In this document: positions 4,267 through 13,044 of the stretch, piece by piece | Position numbering within the stretch: the first letter of the stretch is position 1 | Layout: the number at the start of each line of letters is the position of its first letter | DNA from: an uncultured bacterium | GTDB taxonomy: Bacteria; Hydrogenedentota; Hydrogenedentia; Hydrogenedentales; JAEUWI01 | Length of the DNA stretch: 13,095 nt | Direction: 5' to 3' | Assembly: GCA_963977445.1 (NCBI GenBank) | Contig: CAXBPH010000201.1 | Coordinates: forward strand, 1-13,095 | Notes under the pieces: model-generated | The model's database searches: none | What the model was told of the DNA's origin: nothing | The model's input: the letters and a program-made list of their open reading frames with translations, nothing else | Made by a program: the position numbers and the translations under genes

Positions 4267-4485
4267 CTCGCCGTAGGGCAATACGTCCAAAAAGACTACG
4301 ATGCCCCCAGCATGGAACCTTTCTGGGTCAAGGTGGATTACACACCAACGTCGTCGCCCGGGCAACAAAGACTCCAGGCACGTGAAACGCCCCATACTCC
4401 CGGAAGTGGTCCCGAAATTTTATGACCGCGCCACAATGTGCTAGCATACGCGGACCGGGGTAAACTCTTTGTCAAAAGGATTAAC

Positions 4486-5655
4486 ATGCAGTTCCACACG
4501 CCATTTCGGGCAGCCGTCACCACCCTTGTATTTTTTTCCAGCCATCTGGCCTCCGCCGACCAGACCCAGCTCAAAGACGGCTCTTTGCTGGTGGGAGACA
4601 TCCAACAATTGAGCGAAGCGGTCCTTGGTATCAACACGCCCTACGGCCCCCTCTCCGTACCTTGGGACCAGGTCGCGAATCTCAACACGGCAGCGCCGGT
4701 CACGGTCAATCTGGAAGACGGCACCCAGGTAGCAGGCGTGCTCAACGCCGTAGACGGCCAACAGTTTGTACTTGGAGAAGGCACCGAGGAAATCCCCTTG
4801 ACCCTGACCGCCGTTACCGCCATCGCACGCGTCCCCGATGAGACCGAGGCACCGGCCGATGCGGAAGCTGCACCAGCAATGACGGAGGCCGACGAAGCAG
4901 CCGCTGCCGCACCAGCGATCTGGAAGGGTCGCGCGGAATTCGGTCTCAATGGCCAGTCCGGCAACAAGGAGCGCATCGATATGCGCTTGGGCATCGACGT
5001 CAATCGGGAAGCCGAGAACACCCGTCTGAATCTCTATTTGAAGGGTGAATACGCCGAAACCAATCGCGAAAAATCCGCCAATGAAGTCATGGGTGGGGCC
5101 CGCCTCGAGTATGATTTCAGCGAGCGGACCTATGTCTTTGCCAAGGTGGACCTGGAGTATGACGAATTTGAAGACCTTGACCTCCGTGCCACCGTCACCA
5201 CAGGTCTGGGTCATTTCTTCGTAAAACGAGAGAAGCTGGAGCTCAAAGGCTGGGTCGGTGCCGGTTACGAGCACGAGACCTTCACAAAAGACGCTGAACC
5301 CCTGCCCAGACCAACCAATTCCGAAGAATACGTGCGTCAGGCGCTACGTAGTCAGTTTATCGACAACGAGATCACCACCACCGAAGATTCTGCGGTCGTT
5401 GAGCTCGGCTACACCCTGCGGAAAGACTTCAAAGAGAACTTCCGCTTTAAACATGGCCTCACCTACTATCCTTCACTCGACAACCCCGGCTCCGAGTATC
5501 GCCTCGTCGCTGACACGGGCTTCGAATTCCCCCTCGGGAAAGAGCCCGACTGGACGCTGCGCACCGGTGTTCACCACGAGTACGATGCGACGCCCCGGGA
5601 AGGCATCGAGTCACTGGATACGACCTACTATCTGAACCTTGGTTACAACTGGTAA
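4486..5655 (+). CDS. DUF481/YdiY-like outer-membrane beta-barrel protein with signal peptide and small N-terminal domain
   Basis: Signal-like N-terminus ending HLASA-DQ, then LKDGSLLVG, an Ala/Glu/Pro linker, WKGRAEFGLNGQSGNKE, YDEFEDLDLR, alternating beta-strand pattern and terminal LNLGYNW (BAM-type aromatic C-terminus). ATG at 4486 follows AAGGA. Confidence 0.8.
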   Translation: MQFHTPFRAAVTTLVFFSSHLASADQTQLKDGSLLVGDIQQLSEAVLGINTPYGPLSVPWDQVANLNTAAPVTVNLEDGTQVAGVLNAVDGQQFVLGEGTEEIPLTLTAVTAIARVPDETEAPADAEAAPAMTEADEAAAAAPAIWKGRAEFGLNGQSGNKERIDMRLGIDVNREAENTRLNLYLKGEYAETNREKSANEVMGGARLEYDFSERTYVFAKVDLEYDEFEDLDLRATVTTGLGHFFVKREKLELKGWVGAGYEHETFTKDAEPLPRPTNSEEYVRQALRSQFIDNEITTTEDSAVVELGYTLRKDFKENFRFKHGLTYYPSLDNPGSEYRLVADTGFEFPLGKEPDWTLRTGVHHEYDATPREGIESLDTTYYLNLGYNW

Positions 5656-5855: not shown

Positions 5856-7463
5856 TCATCCTTCCACCACCTGCGCCCAACTCAGCCCAAACTTGGCCAA
5901 GTACTTTCCGAGCCTGTCTGCGTCATTCGTCGACTTCCGCTTCACGCGGGACACGGCGAAGAGCGTCCGGCCAGCCTCAGAAAGACTGCGGCTTTCCCGA
6001 CATACCCGCACCACCTCGGCCAATTGCACCCGATCAAAGGGGTCAATATCGGCAATGGCTTCGGACGATAATACCCGTCTCAGGGTTTCCCGCCCCGGGT
6101 CGACCGTCGTCCCTTCCCAGTCATGGCGAAGCCGCTCTATCTCCCGGTCCACTTCCCGCAGCGTAATGCGCCCGCCCGTCGCCAGGGTCATCATGCGGGT
6201 CACCGCTGCGCCCAGATCCCGAAAATTTCCATTCCACTTCCCCTCGGGCCCCATGGCGAACTTCAAAAATTTCGCCCGGGCCTCCTTATTAAACTGCACG
6301 TGGGTACCGCGTCGCTGAATATTCTTTTCCAGCTCGAATTCCAGGTTAGGGGCCAGGTCTTCCTTTCGGTCCCCCAATCCAGGCAAGGTGAAAGACCACA
6401 AGTTGATACGGGCCAACAGGTCTTCCCGAAAACGCCCTTCGACCACTGCATTCTGCAGGTCACGATTGGTGCCACAAATAAGCTGAAAATCGCTCTCTGC
6501 CGACCTGTCTGAGCCCACGGGAAGGAAACGCTTCTCCTCAATCGCCTGGAGCAACATGGCCTGCTCGTCCAGGCCCAACTCCCCCACTTCATCGAGAAAT
6601 AAGAGGCCTTTGTCCGCCGTTCGGAGCAATCCAGGGCGGTCCGTCGTCGCCCCCGTGAAGGAGCCTTTCACATGACCAAACAAGGACGCCATGGCCGTAT
6701 CCCCCCGCAGGGTCGCGCAGTTCACGGAAACAAAGTCCCCCTGCAGTCGTTGACGCAATTGCTTCAACGCGTAAATCTGGCGGGCGAGCTGCGATTTTCC
6801 CGCGCCCGTCGGTCCCGCAAGCAATATGGGCTGCCGACTGTTCACCGCTACCGTTTCCACCTCGTCAATCAGGGCATTGAAGGCGGCATTCTTCGTCTGA
6901 ATACCCAACTTGAGCAGGGAAACATCATCACGGTGTTCCTGCTTGAATCGCTTCGCCAACTGGTCATATTTCGAGAGGTCCAGGTCAATAGTGCTCCAGT
7001 TTCCCGGACTCCGCGCTCCCTCCTCGCGCCCCGGTCCCGTCTGCAACAGCTTCCCCGGCAGGTAGCGCGTCTCGGTAAGCAGGAAGAGACAAATCTGAGC
7101 AACGTGGGTGCCTGTCGTGAGATGAACCAGATACTCTTCCTTTTCCAGGTCGAAAGGATAATTCCGGGCAAACTCAAAGAGCATGGAGTAGACCTCCACA
7201 AAATCCCAGGGATCTTCACAGTGGGCGTCGTGGAGATTCACCTTTGTAGCGGCTGAAATCTCCCCAATGTCCGCACATACCCGCTTCGCGGTGCGAAAGT
7301 GTTTTTGCGACGCAAGCAGCTCGAAACGGTCCACCGCGAGATCGTCATGACGACACAAATCTACCGAGGGCCGCCATCGTTCCCAACGGGCCTCGCCCCG
7401 GCCATGGGCATCGAGCACCGTGCCCAGGAAGCCGATTACGACGGTTTTCTTCTTTTTCGACAT
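5856..7463 (-). CDS. rtcR: RNA repair transcriptional activator RtcR (CARF sensor, sigma-54 AAA+, HTH)
   Basis: N-terminus KKTVVIGFLGTVLD...RWERWRPSV, DPWDFVEVY, HLTTGTHVAQIC, Walker A GPTGAGKS, GHVKGSFTGA, LFLDEVGELGLDEQ, FREDLLARINLW, GNFRDL, and C-terminal SLSEAGRTLFAVSR...NDADRL.KYL.KFGL. Confidence 0.97.
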   Translation of the reverse strand: MSKKKKTVVIGFLGTVLDAHGRGEARWERWRPSVDLCRHDDLAVDRFELLASQKHFRTAKRVCADIGEISAATKVNLHDAHCEDPWDFVEVYSMLFEFARNYPFDLEKEEYLVHLTTGTHVAQICLFLLTETRYLPGKLLQTGPGREEGARSPGNWSTIDLDLSKYDQLAKRFKQEHRDDVSLLKLGIQTKNAAFNALIDEVETVAVNSRQPILLAGPTGAGKSQLARQIYALKQLRQRLQGDFVSVNCATLRGDTAMASLFGHVKGSFTGATTDRPGLLRTADKGLLFLDEVGELGLDEQAMLLQAIEEKRFLPVGSDRSAESDFQLICGTNRDLQNAVVEGRFREDLLARINLWSFTLPGLGDRKEDLAPNLEFELEKNIQRRGTHVQFNKEARAKFLKFAMGPEGKWNGNFRDLGAAVTRMMTLATGGRITLREVDREIERLRHDWEGTTVDPGRETLRRVLSSEAIADIDPFDRVQLAEVVRVCRESRSLSEAGRTLFAVSRVKRKSTNDADRLGKYLAKFGLSWAQVVEG

Positions 7464-7538: not shown

Positions 7539-7726
7539 CAAAGGATCTTGGACATTCCTGTCCGAGGCAAGGCACTCCCAGGCATGGCCGCGCTATTGCC
7601 GTCTGTCGCAAAAACTCGAATCACAAGGGTAGCCCCCTGAATACTGTGGGGTTTCGATGCTTGAACATCGTACCCTTGGACACACCAGTGTGCTTTGCCT
7701 CGGACAGGAATGTCCAAGATCCTTTG
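7539..7726. repeat. 37-bp inverted repeat pair (36/37 match) flanking a 114-bp core; REPIN/MITE-like element
   Basis: CAAAGGATCTTGGACATTCCTGTCCGAGGCAAGGCAC (7539-7575) and GTGCTTTGCCTCGGACAGGAATGTCCAAGATCCTTTG (7690-7726). Each arm has an internal palindrome GGACA-N4-TGTCC. Confidence 0.85.
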
Positions 7727-7791
7727 TACCTACGCCCCCGGCACCATGCTGCCTTCCAATAGCCGCCTGCCGACAAAATACTTTCCTCGCA

Positions 7792-7915
7792 AATTTTATA
7801 AGTCACTATCCCACAGCCTAGCCCATTCGTCAATAAAAAATATATCCGACAAGATATCGCACTTCAGCTTTACCAATTTACCCTTTTATTTACGGCCCTT
7901 TCATAAACATAAAAG
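7792..7915. promoter_or_regulatory. AT-rich upstream activator region; candidate RtcR site ATATC-N6-GATAT (7842-7857) and possible IHF/bending tract
   Basis: AT-rich island in a GC-rich genome. The palindrome lies about 100-115 bp upstream of the predicted sigma-54 start, a typical enhancer distance. Confidence 0.5.
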
Positions 7916-7929
7916 TGCACCGTGGACTA

Positions 7930-7946
7930 TTGGCACGGCTCGTGCG
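7930..7946 (+). promoter_or_regulatory. Sigma-54 (RpoN) -24/-12 promoter divergent from rtcR; predicted start ~7957
   Basis: TTGGCACGGCTCGTGCG: GG at 7932-7933 and GC at 7944-7945, the canonical spacing of TGGCACG-N4-TTGC, next to a sigma-54 activator gene. Confidence 0.88.
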
Positions 7947-8186
7947 TTACGCACTTCAGTTGCGCGCACACCACGCCGCAACGTCACACAGTTGAATCAA
8001 GGACGCTTGCCAGGACCGCAACACCGGAAGGTACACGGCTCCCCTGGTACGTGGCTTGTCCAAACCGGACAAGTAATAGACGCTGACGCCCCGAGACCGG
8101 CGGCGCGGTTCGCCCAACACCCTTAACCGGATGCCATTGGCGTTCCGCGTTCCGTGAACGGGTTCTAAACTCTGGTGTCAGAAGCC

Positions 8187-8253
8187 CGGAGATGGCTCAC
8201 CGGTAGAGCCCGATGGTATCCCCATCGCACAGGTTCAACTCCTGTATTTCCGA
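8187..8253 (+). ncRNA. tRNA-like unit 1 (aberrant, probably non-decoding)
   Basis: Acceptor CGGAGAT/ATTTCCG (7 bp), D-arm GCTC-ACCGGTA-GAGC, stem CGATG-GTATCCC-CATCG, T-arm ACAGG-TTCAACT-CCTGT. Only 1-nt linkers before the D-arm and T-arm, and no encoded CCA. Confidence 0.75.
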
Positions 8254-8325
8254 ACACGGGTAGCTCAGTTTGGTTAGAGCATCGGCCACAAGCCGACAGT
8301 CGCGGGTTCGATTCCCGTCCCACAC
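8254..8325 (+). ncRNA. tRNA-like unit 2 (5-nt anticodon loop, 3-bp acceptor)
   Basis: TA-GCTC-AGTTTGGTTA-GAGC D-arm, TCGGC-CACAA-GCCGA stem, CAGTC variable region, GCGGG-TTCGATT-CCCGT T-arm. The acceptor pairs only GGG/CCC. Confidence 0.78.
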
Positions 8326-8803
8326 TCTTGAAACGAGTGCACCGTTCCGCAAGGAACACCAGAAGCCTCGAAGGAGGCGGTTTGCGTCTGAATGCCGTCG
8401 CACGGGAAGCCCATGAAGCCCGTCTACCGTGAACCTTTGTGGTCACGGGGAACGAAGCAGATCGGGCCGCCGGGCGACAACAGGCAAGACACCATGCGGC
8501 CGTTGGCGTTCGACTACGGACGAAACATTGGGATGTGCTGCCGAAAGCCCCTGCCAAGGCAAGGCTATCTTCAGCATCGGAACAATGGACCCCCTTGGGG
8601 GGGCGAGATGCTCCGGCAACTCACCCGAAATCCGCAGCGTATCCACCGGCCCCGTGTCGACCCCGTGCAATCAGGCACAGACCGTCTCCTGACGGGCCAA
8701 CTAACAAGCGGCTGACTGGCTATCCACAGGATGCCAGCGACCATAGAAATCACTTCGGTGATGCAATAAAAATCCGGAAATATCCCAGGAAAGGAGGAAC
8801 ATC

Positions 8804-9937
8804 ATGATACATACCATCGCAACCCTTGCACGGCACACATGGACCCGCGTCCGCGTGCGGAAACACGAAATCGGACTGCTCTTCAAGGATAACGCCTTCG
8901 AGGCCATCCTCGAGGCGGGAGCACACCACTTTTTCGACCCCTGCGGTCGCCTCATGGTGAACCTCCTGGACGAGCGAAGTGCCGTGTGGACCCATCCCTA
9001 TATGGATGAGGTAATCAAGGCAGGTGCTTTTGAAAACCGGGCTCTGGTGCTGGACTTGAAGGAGAATGAGCGGGCCATCGTGACGGTGGACGGCATGATC
9101 CGACTGGTTCTCGACGCCGGGCGGCACGTCGTACCCAATACCCTGAAAACAGTAACCGCGGAAGTGCTAAGCACCGATGAGATTCGCTTCAACCATGCCC
9201 GGATGAATGCGATCCTCAACACCGGTGGTACGGCGGCTATCTTCAGCGTCCATCAGGTTGAAACCGGTCAAGCGGGCCTCCTGTATGTCGACGGCGTGTA
9301 TCAGGATACGCTGACATCCGGGCGTCATGTCTTCTTCAAAAAAGTGGGTGTCGTCAAAATTCAGATGGTCGACCTGCGGGAGCGGGTGCTCGATGTCGGT
9401 GGCCAGGACATCATTACGGAAGACAAGGTCTCCATCCGCCTGAACGCCGTGGTGGCCTACCGGGTGACGGACGCCCGACGTTTTGATGAAGCGACGGAGG
9501 ACGGAGGCCAGACCCTCTATCGGGACACCCAGCTCGCACTGCGGGCAACGGTAGGTACACGCAACCTGGATACGCTGCTGGCGGAAAAGGATGCTGTCAC
9601 CCAGGAACTCGCAGAAACCCTGCGGGCCCGGGCCGAGCAGCTGGGATGCGTGGTGCTCAATGTGGGTATCCGGGACATTATCCTTCCCGGTGACATGAAG
9701 GACCTGATGAACAAGGTTACCGAAGCGAAAAAGGTGGCGGAAGCCAACCTCATCGTCCGGCGCGAAGAAACGGCAGCCATGCGGAGCCAGGTAAACACGG
9801 CGAAGCTGCTGGAAAACAACCCCACGCTCATGCGACTTCGTGAGCTGGAAGTACTGGAAAAAATCGCAGGCCAGAATAAGCTCAAAATCATGTTGGGCGA
9901 AAAAGGCCTCAGCGAGCGGGTGATGAACCTGCTCTAA
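8804..9937 (+). CDS. SPFH/Band-7 domain 'slipin' family protein
   Basis: AGGAGG RBS at 8792-8797. Three repeated N-terminal beta modules (EIGLLFKD..LEAGAH, ERAIVTVDG..LDAGRH, QAGLLYVDG..LTSGRH), then SPFH core VDLRE..GQDIITEDKVSIRLN, QLALRATVG..LDTLL, GIRDIILPG, RREETAAMRS, NPTLMRLRELE. Confidence 0.92.
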   Translation: MIHTIATLARHTWTRVRVRKHEIGLLFKDNAFEAILEAGAHHFFDPCGRLMVNLLDERSAVWTHPYMDEVIKAGAFENRALVLDLKENERAIVTVDGMIRLVLDAGRHVVPNTLKTVTAEVLSTDEIRFNHARMNAILNTGGTAAIFSVHQVETGQAGLLYVDGVYQDTLTSGRHVFFKKVGVVKIQMVDLRERVLDVGGQDIITEDKVSIRLNAVVAYRVTDARRFDEATEDGGQTLYRDTQLALRATVGTRNLDTLLAEKDAVTQELAETLRARAEQLGCVVLNVGIRDIILPGDMKDLMNKVTEAKKVAEANLIVRREETAAMRSQVNTAKLLENNPTLMRLRELEVLEKIAGQNKLKIMLGEKGLSERVMNLL

Positions 9938-9977
9938 CACGAGCAGGTTGACGTGGGCTGTGGCAGTCCGGGGACGG

Positions 9978-10020
9978 GCCGCTTCCGGTGTTCTTTAGAG
10001 CACCGGGAGCGGCTATTTTC
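9978..10020 (+). terminator. Terminator hairpin closing the RtcR-dependent unit
   Basis: 16-bp stem GCCGCTTCCGGTGTTC-TTTA-GAGCACCGGGAGCGGC (two G:U pairs) followed by TATTTTC. Confidence 0.8.
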
Positions 10021-10281
10021 ATTCCTACGGTCGCCAAACCGCACAGGTTGGCGAACTCATTAAACCCAGCGAGTCGAAGGATATCGCCGTTCTCGTTCAC
10101 ACCCGGGAACCGGGCAGAAACCCTCAGGACGGGCTGCACGGGCGGGTATTCCTGTGGGAACGATGAATCAGCGAGGTGCGGGCGGAGCGCCAAACAACGG
10201 AACCCGCTGTGCCCGAGTAATGGTTGGAACCCAAAAGGGAAAATTCACTTCCATCCAAACGTGCCCCGAAGCGGTCATTTA

Positions 10282-10290
10282 TGCTACAAT
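10282..10290 (+). promoter_or_regulatory. Extended -10 sigma-70 promoter candidate for the helicase
   Basis: TGCTACAAT matches TGn-TACAAT, about 70 bp upstream of ATG 10363. Confidence 0.45.
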
Positions 10291-10362
10291 CCCTCTCCTT
10301 AAGCCGAAGTGGGCAACGGCAGTTTTATACGCCCCGAATACCAAGGATGGAACACGCCATAC

Positions 10363-13044
10363 ATGCGACATGCTTTACGACTTTCCCCCGGCGGGCAATT
10401 GCGCTGGGAGTCGCTACTTGACGATGCCAAAGGCCTCGCGCCTCTACAACAGCGATTTTCTGAAGACTGGCGGGTCGGTTTGTTTGCCCTCGCGGCAGAT
10501 AAACTTTCGGTGGATACCTATCCCACGTTGCTCTTCTGGCAGGAATTTTCCAGCCATTTTCTCACGACCCTGTGCCACATCCCCGGCAATACGGATGAGG
10601 TGGTGGTACCCCGACTCAGTGATGAAGAAATAGAGTCCATTGTGCTTCATGCGCCGCCCATGACGGGTGGCGAGTATCTATCCGTAACGATGCTGGGGCG
10701 CATCTGGAAGTCTCTCGAAACCTGGGTGAATGATCGGGCTGCCCTTGATGGCGGACTGGAAGCCTTTCTGCGCCAGCATGCGCCCGCGTGGCACAAAGTC
10801 GGCATGGTCTGTTTCCAATTGGCCGAAAACCCATCGGACTCCGGTCGGCCCTTCGCCTATATGGCCACCTATACACCGGGATTTAACGCGGCAGGCAACC
10901 TGAAGCACCTCCCCCTCCGTAGTGCCATCGAACAATTCACCGAATCAGGCAATGAATCTGCCTTGCAGAAGCTGCTCAACCCCGTCCGTCTGGCCGGCAA
11001 GCGCTGCCCCTGGGTTAAAGATCTGCTGGAGTCGGGCGAGGTCTATGAGGCGTGCGCCTGGACGACTCCCGAAGCCTATCGGCTATTGCAGGACGCGGAA
11101 GTGCTTGAAGAATGTGGTTTGGCCCTGCGACTTCCCGATTGGTGGAAAAAGCGGGCCCGTCCTCAGGTGGCCGTGACCATTGGTGACGAAACCATGACCG
11201 CCATGGGTGCCTCCGCACTCCTGGACTTCAAGATGGATATCGCCCTGGGCGATGAACATCTCACCGACGACGAAGTAAACGACTTGCTCCTGGGTGATGA
11301 TGGACTGGTCCTTTTGAAAGGCCAATGGATTGAGGTAGACAAGGCCAAGCTCAATGAAGCCCTGGCCCATTGGCGGGCCATCGAAGAGACCGTCAAAGAT
11401 GGTGAAATCGATTTTATAGAGGGAATGCGTCTCTTGGCGGGTGCTTCCAAAGATCTCACCGCCGAAGTAGAGGCCGACGACGATCACGACTGGGTCCATA
11501 TCACGGCAGGTACGGCCATGCGCGAGCTACTGGCCAACCTCCACGACCCAGCCAATCTGGACACCCTGAATGCACCGGAAGGCCTCAAGGCCACCCTGCG
11601 CCCCTATCAGCATGACGGCCTCGCCTGGCTCCACCTCTTGAGCGAGCTCGGCCTTGGTGCCTGTCTGGCAGACGACATGGGCCTGGGTAAAACCGTCCAG
11701 GTCCTGGCAGCACTCCTTTGTCGGCGACGGGACGAACGGGCGGACACCCTGCCCCCCGCGCTCCTCATTGTGCCCGCATCACTCCTGGGCAACTGGAAGA
11801 ACGAATCGAACCAGTTCACACCGGCCCTGCGAATTTCCATTCTTCACGCTTCCGAAATGGACCCCGAAGAAATGGATGTGCTCGCGGACGAAGAAGACCC
11901 CAATCGCTTTGCCAATATCGACGTCCTCATGACGACCTACGGCATGATTACCCGACTGGATTGGCTCCAGAACCTCGTGTGGGACATGCTAATCCTCGAC
12001 GAAGCCCAGGCCATCAAAAATCCGGGCACCCGTCAGAGCAAGACCATCAAGAAGTTACAGGCCCGCTCCCGGGTTGCCCTTACCGGTACGCCCATTGAAA
12101 ACCGCCTGGGTGACCTGTGGTCCCTCTTCGATTTCCTGAATCCCGGCCTCCTCGGCTCGGCCAGTGTCTTCAAGACCTTCCTGAAGGGCCTCCGCGCCCG
12201 GGAGCATGATCACTATGCGCCCCTGCGCCGCCTGGTCAACCCCTATATCCTTCGGCGGCTCAAGACCGACCGCAGCATCATTGCCGATCTGCCGGACAAG
12301 ACAGAGACGACCCGGTACTGCAATCTTTCCAAGACACAGGTACGCCTTTACCAGAAAACCGTGAACGCCATGACGCGCGCCCTCGAGCATGCCGATGGAA
12401 TTTCACGTCGTGGCCTGGTCTTGCAGACCCTCATGCGCCTCAAGCAGATTTGTAACCATCCGAGCCAGCTTTCGGGTGACGGAGAATACCGCGCCAGCCA
12501 CAGTGGCAAGTTTCAGCGCCTCGCCGAGATCTGCGAAGAACTCGCCGAACGCCAGGAACGTGTGTTGGTCTTCACCCAGTTTCGCGAAATCATCCCGGCA
12601 TTGGAAGAGCATCTGGCCGAAGTGTTTGGCCGTCGCGGCCTCGCCCTCCACGGCGGCACGGCCGTCGGCAAACGCCGCACCCTCGTTGACCGTTTCCAGG
12701 AAGATGACGGTCCGCCCTTCTTCATCCTGTCCATCAAGGCAGGCGGCACCGGGCTGAATCTCACCGCAGCGTCACACGTCATTCACTTTGACCGCTGGTG
12801 GAACCCTGCTGTGGAAAATCAGGCCACCGACCGGGCCTTCCGAATCGGACAGAAGAAAAATGTGCTCGTCCACAAGTTTGTCACCCTCGGAACAGTGGAA
12901 GAACGCATCGACACCCTTATCGAGGAAAAGCGCCACCTGGCCGACGAAATCCTGAGTAGCGATGGTGAAATCAACCTGACCGAATTGGGCGACGACGAAC
13001 TACTCGAATTGGTCCGACTCGACGTAAACCGCGCGACGGTGTAA
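10363..13044 (+). CDS. SNF2/SWI2-family DEAD/DEAH-box helicase
   Basis: LRPYQHDG, LADDMGLGKT, ILDEAQAIKN, LTGTPIENRL, LRRLKTD, LVFTQF, AGGTGLNLTAASHVIHFDRWWNPAVENQATDRAFRIGQ. ATG 10363 is preferred over GTG 10309, but the start is uncertain. Confidence 0.95.
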   Translation: MRHALRLSPGGQLRWESLLDDAKGLAPLQQRFSEDWRVGLFALAADKLSVDTYPTLLFWQEFSSHFLTTLCHIPGNTDEVVVPRLSDEEIESIVLHAPPMTGGEYLSVTMLGRIWKSLETWVNDRAALDGGLEAFLRQHAPAWHKVGMVCFQLAENPSDSGRPFAYMATYTPGFNAAGNLKHLPLRSAIEQFTESGNESALQKLLNPVRLAGKRCPWVKDLLESGEVYEACAWTTPEAYRLLQDAEVLEECGLALRLPDWWKKRARPQVAVTIGDETMTAMGASALLDFKMDIALGDEHLTDDEVNDLLLGDDGLVLLKGQWIEVDKAKLNEALAHWRAIEETVKDGEIDFIEGMRLLAGASKDLTAEVEADDDHDWVHITAGTAMRELLANLHDPANLDTLNAPEGLKATLRPYQHDGLAWLHLLSELGLGACLADDMGLGKTVQVLAALLCRRRDERADTLPPALLIVPASLLGNWKNESNQFTPALRISILHASEMDPEEMDVLADEEDPNRFANIDVLMTTYGMITRLDWLQNLVWDMLILDEAQAIKNPGTRQSKTIKKLQARSRVALTGTPIENRLGDLWSLFDFLNPGLLGSASVFKTFLKGLRAREHDHYAPLRRLVNPYILRRLKTDRSIIADLPDKTETTRYCNLSKTQVRLYQKTVNAMTRALEHADGISRRGLVLQTLMRLKQICNHPSQLSGDGEYRASHSGKFQRLAEICEELAERQERVLVFTQFREIIPALEEHLAEVFGRRGLALHGGTAVGKRRTLVDRFQEDDGPPFFILSIKAGGTGLNLTAASHVIHFDRWWNPAVENQATDRAFRIGQKKNVLVHKFVTLGTVEERIDTLIEEKRHLADEILSSDGEINLTELGDDELLELVRLDVNRATV

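Follow-up and report, generated by a model that had tools for sequence, protein, structure and literature searches.

The 13,095 nt stretch analysed here (contig CAXBPH010000201.1 of GenBank assembly GCA_963977445.1, from an uncultured bacterium of the Hydrogenedentales; hereafter the window) carries a putative large RNA between a sigma-54-type promoter and a gene for a slipin, a protein of the SPFH/Band 7 family. Comparative sequence analysis indicates that this large, multi-domain structured RNA is real and has a conserved core at positions 8083-8697. The predicted core consists, in order, of a 5′ domain, a tRNA-like cloverleaf with a 3 bp acceptor, an anticodon-arm-like hairpin, a GNRA hairpin and a 3′ domain, to which the lineage of the window appears to have added three 5′ hairpins and a second tRNA-like cloverleaf. 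The tRNA-like element predicted earlier as b7a-tRNA is probably one module of this larger RNA, the flanking domains of which covary and are absent from Rfam 15. Judging from its promoter pattern, the interval of ~850 nt that ends at the ribosome-binding site (RBS) of the slipin gene would be the 5′ part of a non-coding transcript dependent on RtcR and sigma-54. As to function, we infer with a probability of about 0.5 that the RNA is a partner or scaffold of the vault-like slipin in an RNA-damage response. The parts of the RNA are listed below.

7957-8075, + strand: lineage-specific 5′ leader with three hairpins (7957-7983, 8005-8052 and 8053-8075; RNAalifold)
8083-8181, + strand: conserved 5′ domain, with helix P-a (8083-8090 / 8174-8181), helix P-b (8100-8108 / 8145-8155) and a variable hairpin, P-c, between
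8186-8253, + strand: tRNA-like unit 1, a cloverleaf with a 7 bp acceptor, a 5 nt 'anticodon' loop and no variable loop; a lineage-specific insertion
8258-8321, + strand: tRNA-like unit 2, the conserved b7a-tRNA-like cloverleaf, with intact D and T arms, a 3 bp acceptor and a 5 nt anticodon loop
8323-8357, + strand: two hairpins, one anticodon-arm-like (8323-8339; 5 bp, 7 nt loop UUGAAAC) and one with a GNRA loop (GCAA; 8344-8357)
8365-8697, + strand: conserved 3′ domain of ~330 nt, with a closing long-range helix (8365-8384 / 8678-8697)
8480-8484 / 8662-8666, 8486-8505 / 8643-8659 and 8507-8520 / 8631-8640, + strand: inner long-range helices of the 3′ domain
8698-8803, + strand: variable tail with a UUCG hairpin (8749-8762) and the slipin RBS

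Conservation and covariation of the RNA core

Related loci were sampled by way of the slipin. Among 8000 candidates scored, 4536 proteins were homologous at E <= 0.001, and 536 of 600 candidate stretches encoded a slipin relative; the locus sample comprised the best 80 loci, with one genome per species. The closest slipin relatives (73-75 % identity) entered the comparison as proteins only, and the planctomycete Schlesneria paludicola has a slipin with 52 % identity to that of the window. In 65 of the 80 loci, an nhmmer search located unit 2 upstream of the slipin gene, at 402-718 nt (median 489) from its start, and the loci that carry the RNA core span several phyla. Ten of the 15 slipin loci without a match have <600 nt of upstream sequence. 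Two loci from Hydrogenedentales metagenome-assembled genomes, L001 and L002, repeat the gene order of the window (MsrBA, RtcR, gap, slipin, SNF2) and share with it 77-78 % amino-acid identity in RtcR and 60 % in the slipin; by blastn, only positions 8082-8364 of the window align to them, at 79-80 %.

The conserved sequence does not appear to encode protein. In the spacers between unit 2 and the slipin gene, tblastx similarity was divided between +/+ (3075) and −/− (3181) among 6294 matches, and switched frame within a locus pair. Because the similarity falls on both strands and changes frame, we regard the conservation as non-coding. A small protein between unit 2 and the slipin gene was rejected as a candidate on these grounds and on the absence of a Pfam match, and none of the four open reading frames (ORFs) tested in the promoter-slipin interval of the window has a Pfam family.

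The 3′ domain was defined from an alignment of 66 sequences that cover everything between unit 2 and the slipin start, made with MAFFT from sequence only, in which RNAalifold found a consensus of 44 pairs. Pairing is possible in 85.6 % of cells, compared with 32-47 % in slid controls, and none of 500 shuffles reached this level. The covariation score was 0.425 against 0.07-0.11 for the slid controls, with 38 of the 44 pairs changing on both sides. It is the slid controls that carry the argument for covariation, because related sequences can outscore shuffles without having any structure. The window forms 32 of the 44 consensus pairs (11-21 when slid), and its own minimum free energy (MFE) fold of the domain has a z-score of −4.06 (100 shuffles) and contains the same closing helix, 8365-8384 / 8678-8697. 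A hidden Markov model (HMM) of the 3′ domain from which the window, L001 and L002 were excluded found 69 loci, always on the + strand and at most once per locus. A Shine-Dalgarno-like segment, AAGGAGGCGG (8372-8380), is conserved ~430 nt upstream of the slipin start; it constitutes the 5′ strand of the closing helix, and for this reason is not taken to be an RBS.

For the 5′ domain, 50 sequences of the block upstream of unit 2 were aligned. The first RNAalifold run on the MAFFT alignment returned only 13 pairs, because P-a was misaligned between groups, and a hand-drawn structure was then supplied and used for a covariance-model search (model R1). R1 gave 66 matches in 83 sources (the window and 65 of 82 other loci); no source yielded more than one, and every match is on the + strand and upstream of the slipin gene. 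The window itself scored 67.6 bits (E 2e-15). In the alignment made by the model, 78.7 % of cells are paired (31-50 % when slid; reached by none of 500 shuffles), the covariation score is 0.381 (0.085-0.125 when slid), and changes on both sides occur at all eight P-a pairs and nine of the 11 P-b pairs. In the window, P-a joins CUGACGCC (8083-8090) to GGUGUCAG (8174-8181), as judged by the consensus fold of three sequences and the local MFE fold, and the MFE fold of the window forms both P-a and P-b. One P-b pair is GU in 44 of 65 rows, and one 3′-domain pair is G-U in 52 of 66; these conserved G-U pairs fix the strand of the RNA.

A preliminary description of this DNA had proposed a structured RNA of ~800 nt starting at 7957, and had named a lack of conservation or covariation outside the tRNA-like part among the results that would refute it. 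Conservation and covariation are both found, in each of the two flanking domains. The fold is also more stable than that of shuffled sequence, a comparison that it had called for, with −332.6 kcal/mol for the + strand of the interval against −297.0 +/- 7.6 in 20 shuffles (z −4.7), compared with a weaker z of −2.9 for the − strand. As it had anticipated, the RNA has no counterpart among the RNase P, tmRNA, intron and Y RNA families in Rfam scans of the window and its relatives: tRNA is the only family at gathering score in the window and nine related loci, and permissive scans of positions 7600-9000 of the window and 560-1300 of locus L007 yielded nothing relevant. The GCAA (8344-8357) and UUCG (8749-8762) hairpins it listed are present, and our data support its view that the tRNA-like units belong, as domains, to a single larger conserved RNA and are not separate genes. 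The extent needs correction: positions 7957-8082, unit 1 and the last ~100 nt are lineage-limited or variable, so that the view of the whole ~800 nt as one conserved unit is not supported.

Long-range nested helices do exist, as had been claimed, but the particular two that had been named are neither conserved nor above chance. The complementary letters are there (TCTGGTGT at 8171-8178 with ACACCAGA at 8356-8363, and AGACGC at 8078-8083 with GCGTCT at 8384-8389). Against 300 dinucleotide shuffles, the interval contains two perfect 8-mer complement pairs (6.6 +/- 3.5 expected) and 81 6-mer complement pairs (99.7 +/- 13 expected). Across 62 loci, the longest contiguous pairing at the positions equivalent to the first helix averages 4.61 within a locus and 4.42 +/- 0.11 between mismatched loci, and reaches at least 7 bp in only six of the 62, among them the window, L001 and L002. 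In L001 and L002 the first helix keeps seven of its eight pairs without a compensating change, and the second keeps four and five of six. Moreover, the 5′ strand of the first overlaps 8174-8181, which pairs with 8083-8090 in the covarying P-a, and the 3′ strand of the second falls within the closing helix of the 3′ domain. Since the two helices are at chance level and compete with supported ones, the tRNA-like units are not enclosed in the way proposed. The segment UCUGGUGUCAG (8171-8181) could pair either with the P-a 5′ strand (8083-8090) or with ACACCAGA downstream of the tRNA-like units, and the first helix may represent an alternative pairing to P-a, or alternative conformers, in the lineage of the window.

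The tRNA-like units and lineage-specific parts

Both tRNA-like units of the preliminary description were recovered. Unit 2 (8258-8321) scores 40.5 bits with the Rfam tRNA model (RF00005; gathering score 29), with the match confined to model positions 5-66, whereas unit 1 (8187-8253 in the match) falls below the gathering score at 24.8 bits. ARAGORN reports no tRNA in the window, and neither unit combines the 7 bp acceptor, the 7 nt anticodon loop and the detection by a gene finder that mark a functional tRNA. The Rfam tRNA matches show a tRNA-like elbow with conserved D- and T-loop letters. Across the loci, ARAGORN sometimes calls unit 2 a tRNA, with many differing anticodons. Of the two hairpins that follow, the first carries a loop of 7 nt in 36 of the 66 sequences, which mostly conforms to CUNNNAA and resembles an anticodon loop, and the second has a GNRA loop in many of the 66.

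Unit 1 lies between the 3′ strand of P-a and unit 2. Its cloverleaf fold has a z-score of −3.5, with none of 200 shuffles as good, and its occupancy in the MAFFT alignment is ~0.05 outside the window, L001 and L002. In locus L026 (1864-2130), the site that unit 1 occupies in the window, between the 5′ domain and unit 2, holds an element (1973-2059) reported by ARAGORN as a full tRNA-Leu(tag); the junction of the 5′ domain and unit 2 seems to tolerate or attract tRNA insertions.

All three hairpins of the 5′ leader persist across the window, L001 and L002, some of their pairs having changed on both sides (RNAalifold; two effective lineages only), and the 8005-8052 hairpin includes a conserved internal segment. 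No other locus contained the leader in an nhmmer search. The tail (8698-8803) is without counterpart in L001 or L002 in the MAFFT alignment.

Genomic context

The genes and signals around the RNA in the window are as follows.

5856-7463, − strand: rtcR, divergent from the RNA; encodes a sigma-54 enhancer-binding activator whose RtcR domain is of the CARF type
7931-7945, + strand: sigma-54-type −24/−12 promoter, TGGCAC-N6-TGC (pattern scan)
8791-8797, + strand: slipin RBS, AAGGAGG
8804-9937, + strand: slipin (SPFH/Band 7); three beta repeats at the N terminus, a long helix at the C terminus; residues 151-322 match Pfam Band_7
10309-13044, + strand: SNF2-family helicase (Pfam DUF3670, SNF2 and Helicase_C), the next gene of the presumed operon

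A Pfam scan of the window ORFs gave RtcR at 260 bits together with Sigma54_activat, and the NCBIfam equivalog RNA_repair_RtcR scored 783.5 bits (cut-off 650). The whole window has a single match to the promoter pattern, with a chance expectation of 0.17, and this match is kept in L001 and L002 (MAFFT alignment). The window has the arrangement expected of an RtcR regulon, in which an RtcR-family activator adjoins a sigma-54 −24/−12 promoter, and we infer the transcription start of the RNA from this pattern. RtcR lies divergently upstream in nine of the 80 loci, and a sigma-54 pattern occurs within 300 nt upstream of the 5′ domain in five of these nine; loci with the pattern at this distance include L012, L019 and L023. 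RtcA or RtcB follows or lies near the slipin gene in L012, L018, L019, L020, L023 and L046.

A different setting is seen in many Planctomycetota loci, where the cassette is the last element of a one-strand array of up to 39 tRNA genes (ARAGORN, 60 loci). Examples, within the L004-L078 range, include L009 (421-6383), L013 (420-6401) and L045 (1559-6335), and the arrays upstream of the RNA usually end in Trp, Thr, Arg(n), Cys. Among the 65 loci with a 5′ domain, 23 have at least 10 upstream + strand tRNA genes and 15 at least 20. A tRNA gene terminates no more than 150 nt from P-a in 35 loci; tRNA-Cys(GCA) accounts for 28 of the 35, and the gap is zero in eight. The RtcR-linked loci have no tRNA array.

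The gene order also differs in two Desulfobacterales loci, L018 (5068-7001) and L052 (5125-7001), in which the RNA is followed by rtcB and then the slipin gene; their 3′-domain HMM matches are weak and partial (E 5e-7 and 4e-8). Two proteobacterial loci with slipins of 31-36 % identity, from Citrobacter (L081) and Burkholderia (L082), gave no match to the 5′-domain model or the 3′-domain HMM. L082 has a tRNA-like element with a full acceptor, while none was found in L081 at E up to 0.1; a Megablast search with the Citrobacter region for an annotated Escherichia coli counterpart gave no match.

In the window, L001 and L002 the gene after the slipin encodes an SNF2-family helicase and not RtcA or RtcB, an unusual cargo for an RtcR-controlled operon. 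The helicase is syntenic in L001 (5900-8608) and L002 (8324-11032) at 69 % amino-acid identity, and it scores best in NCBIfam with the SCO1167/SCO6262 family helicase (592 bits; cut-off 1200). The gap between the two genes (9938-10308) is ~370 nt in the window and ~190 nt in L001/L002, and includes a 104 aa ORF (9988-10302) with no Pfam or NCBIfam family. On the other side, the MsrBA-RtcR interval contains a DUF481 gene in the window (4438-5655) and a PRiA4_ORF3-like gene in L001 (1470-2081) and L002 (3897-4622), a local gene replacement beside the rtcR locus.

Proposed function and alternative explanations

The conservation, gene order, strand, covariation and genomic context of the RNA are established, and a functional proposal can be built on them. 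The slipin was modelled with AlphaFold (AF2) from a 27-sequence alignment, with a mean predicted local distance difference test (pLDDT) score of 79.9. The model has three N-terminal beta repeats, an SPFH domain and a long helix. Foldseek comparison with the PDB matched it to stomatin, prohibitin (PHB) and HflK/C, which are cage-forming SPFH proteins, over ~220-250 columns (E 3e-15 to 1e-11), and to major vault protein (MVP) chains along the whole model, over 401-454 columns (E 2e-10 to 4e-8). We treat the vault-like architecture of the modelled slipin as a lead only.

In Salmonella, RtcR binds tRNA halves ending in a 2′,3′-cyclic phosphate. By extension from Salmonella, RNA damage would activate RtcR, and the RNA would be produced together with the slipin and act as its RNA partner. 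The two flanking domains might anchor the RNA to an oligomeric, vault-like SPFH assembly, with the tRNA-like module offering a tRNA shape that would be non-decodable. This shape could recruit tRNA-directed repair or processing enzymes (RtcB, RtcA, RNase P or Z) or soak up tRNA-targeting nucleases. Such a pairing of slipin and RNA would parallel those of Ro60 with Y RNA and of MVP with vault RNA.

A number of points weigh against the existence of the RNA or its partnership with the slipin. The alignment of the 5′ domain was fitted to the very structure that was counted, and places the P-a row of the window out of register; the 3′-domain structure was likewise derived from the alignment used for counting. 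The 5′ domain alone folds with a z-score of only −1.4, and 18 of 200 shuffles fold equally well. The sequence-only 3′-domain HMM misses the window and L002 and finds L001 only at E 8.6e-6. Because of these misses, the window is, on sequence grounds, a divergent member of the RNA family, and the homology of its 3′ domain is argued from the alignment, from L001 as an intermediate and from the preserved pairs. The resemblance of the slipin to MVP is one of fold, with query-normalised TM-scores of 0.35-0.37, and does not imply homology. Transcription, processing, RNA binding and activity are at present predictions from sequence. Finally, no + strand terminator was found between the RNA and the slipin RBS in the window, and the 3′ domain ends close to the slipin start, at a median of 60 nt (8-306) across the loci and at 107 nt in the window.

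These last two points fit equally well with a second explanation, that the element is a cis-acting leader and not an independent RNA. Such a leader would control the read-through, stability or translation of the slipin and later genes, perhaps by sensing a tRNA-related signal or by being cleaved at the tRNA-like unit. The RNA is always directly upstream of the first gene of the operon and on the same strand, and a regulated terminator could be represented by the run of at least four U residues found after the closing helix in 18 of 66 loci. However, the first gene is rtcB in L018 and L052, with the slipin gene further downstream, and in many loci the RNA abuts the tRNA-Cys of an array with a gap of 0-17 nt, as expected of a processed stable RNA. 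An element of ~600 nt with an embedded tRNA elbow is also unlike the leaders in Rfam, none of which matches, and the interchange of b7a-tRNA with Y RNA, which is reported in the available part of a 2018 preprint, points to a trans-acting partner (10.1101/312249). We consider a purely cis-acting role the main rival, but less likely than the slipin partnership.

Less probable still is a role that is independent of the slipin, as a decoy or sentinel for tRNA-cleaving toxins. The RNA might titrate the toxins as a sponge, or might act as a damage sensor whose cleavage yields cyclic-phosphate fragments that activate RtcR. RtcR control, the tRNA-like elbow with its conserved D- and T-loop letters, and the location at the end of stress-induced tRNA arrays, the tRNAs of which are proposed as sponges for toxin RNases in the text available to us (PMC8421152), are all in keeping with this idea. 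It leaves unexplained the 430 nt of conserved flanking structure and the strict linkage to the slipin gene. Furthermore, the anticodon loops in the window have only 5 nt and the anticodons that ARAGORN assigns to unit 2 are inconsistent across the loci, so that the RNA is unlikely to be the target of a specific anticodon nuclease. That there is no large RNA at all, and that one or more decayed tRNA genes lie in a GC-rich spacer with incidental hairpins, is already disfavoured and highly improbable: the helices named in the preliminary description are at chance level, the folding energy of the 5′ domain alone is unremarkable and the GC-rich window inflates apparent structure, but both flanking domains covary across several phyla, the parts keep a fixed order and spacing, and the + strand carries all 66 matches to the 5′-domain model and all 69 to the 3′-domain HMM, with no locus matched twice by either.

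We favour a partnership of the RNA with the slipin. A bolder and more doubtful form of this proposal is that a widespread RNA of ~550-750 nt with a tRNA elbow might be the dedicated RNA subunit of a bacterial vault-like SPFH cage, deployed either through RtcR upon tRNA damage or as the terminal gene of long, stress-induced tRNA arrays, and that this cage would handle, shelter or repair damaged tRNAs.

Comparison with known systems

One of the closest known systems is b7a-tRNA (band 7-associated tRNA), a prediction of Burroughs and Aravind (Nucleic Acids Research, 2016). The abstract of their study reportedly describes SPFH/Band-7 scaffolds with 'a novel tRNA-like molecule'. Unit 2 fits the description of b7a-tRNA as a tRNA-like element beside a Band-7/SPFH gene in RtcB/RtcR loci, and it keeps the same company: it is paired with Band_7 in the window, at a distance of 483 nt upstream and with RtcR divergent, and in 65 of the 80 loci, some of which also have RtcA/RtcB. 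No Rfam model of b7a-tRNA itself was encountered. The preliminary description suggested an undescribed class of RNA; its tRNA-like core had already been predicted in 2016 as b7a-tRNA, but the flanking domains have no Rfam family. In the part of the 2018 preprint available, b7a-tRNA is a prediction adjoining Band-7 and RtcB genes, strongly resembles authentic tRNA, is occasionally interchanged with YrlA beside Rsr, and had no experimental validation at that date (10.1101/312249). In contrast to that resemblance, as far as the same text describes it, unit 2 has an acceptor of 3 bp and an anticodon loop of 5 nt. Unit 2 also differs from b7a-tRNA, which is known here by secondary description, in being set between covarying domains of ~100 nt on the 5′ side and ~330 nt on the 3′ side. 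Full-text literature searches returned no description of the flanking domains, although subscription papers or supplements may hold one, and the 2016 description of b7a-tRNA may already mention flanking structure. The 2016 prediction now gains a concrete, testable anatomy, in which the 'tRNA' would be a module of a much larger fold.

The YrlA and Y RNAs that act with Ro60 (Rsr) in rsr-yrlBA-rtcBA operons are described, in the text consulted, as tRNA mimics under RtcR control (PMC4201824, PMC7790460). The likeness lies in a tRNA-mimicking, RtcR-controlled RNA that, according to these sources as consulted, has a scaffold protein as its presumed partner in repairing or degrading RNA. The two differ in size, since the YrlA model has 114 positions and the present RNA is five to seven times longer, and in protein partner, since YrlA loci carry Ro60/Rsr and no TROVE (Ro60) domain was found by Pfam in the 12 window ORFs scanned, although the operon may run past the end of the window. 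A YrlA match (RF02553; 19.2 bits, E 0.54, gathering score 69) was rejected: it bridges the two units, running from the T arm of the first into the D arm of the second, and is a dimer artefact. The YrlA authors warn, in the part of their article consulted, of tandem tRNAs as false positives (PMC4201824).

Long tRNA arrays (L-arrays) resemble the Planctomycetota loci, in which the cassette is the final element of arrays of up to 39 tRNA genes; the window differs in having no array and an RtcR/sigma-54 promoter instead. The accessible text on L-arrays reports them from Planctomycetes and states that they are induced by translational stress and adjoin rtcB and HNH endonuclease genes (PMC8421152); in a term search, this paper gave no mention of SPFH, stomatin or band 7. 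Two further reports concern SPFH-type genes: in an Anabaena trcR mutant, a slipin gene (alr0740), rtcB and a long tRNA array are all derepressed (PMC10272220), and Pseudomonas aeruginosa has an SPFH gene within its rtc locus (PMC13086221). The present RNA links three topics that are usually separate, namely RtcR/RtcB RNA repair, SPFH/slipin cages and stress-induced long tRNA arrays.

In size class, in multi-domain long-range architecture and in being supported by covariation alone, the RNA is comparable to OLE, GOLLD, ROOL, HEARO and raiA. These names belong to Rfam 15, and neither they nor group I/II introns or the T-box gave a match in the Rfam scans of the window and its relatives. Covariation-supported large RNAs of unknown function are rare in bacteria, and all of them have opened up new biology.

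The vault particle offers a parallel on the protein side as well, in that the protein combines an SPFH-type shoulder with N-terminal beta repeats and a long helix, and has a dedicated small structured RNA beside it. It differs in that the resemblance is one of fold only (query-normalised TM-score 0.35-0.37), no TEP1/PARP partner is present and the RNAs are unrelated in sequence. According to the part of the report consulted, the bacterial MVP homologues described previously are different proteins from the slipin (10.1101/872010). If the slipin does pair with the RNA, the system would provide a bacterial model for vault- and Ro-type ribonucleoproteins, the functions of which are still debated. 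If the RNA should also prove to be the subunit of a cage, it would represent a new large RNA class absent from Rfam, and would add a third scaffold-RNA pair to Ro60/Y RNA and vault/vault RNA.

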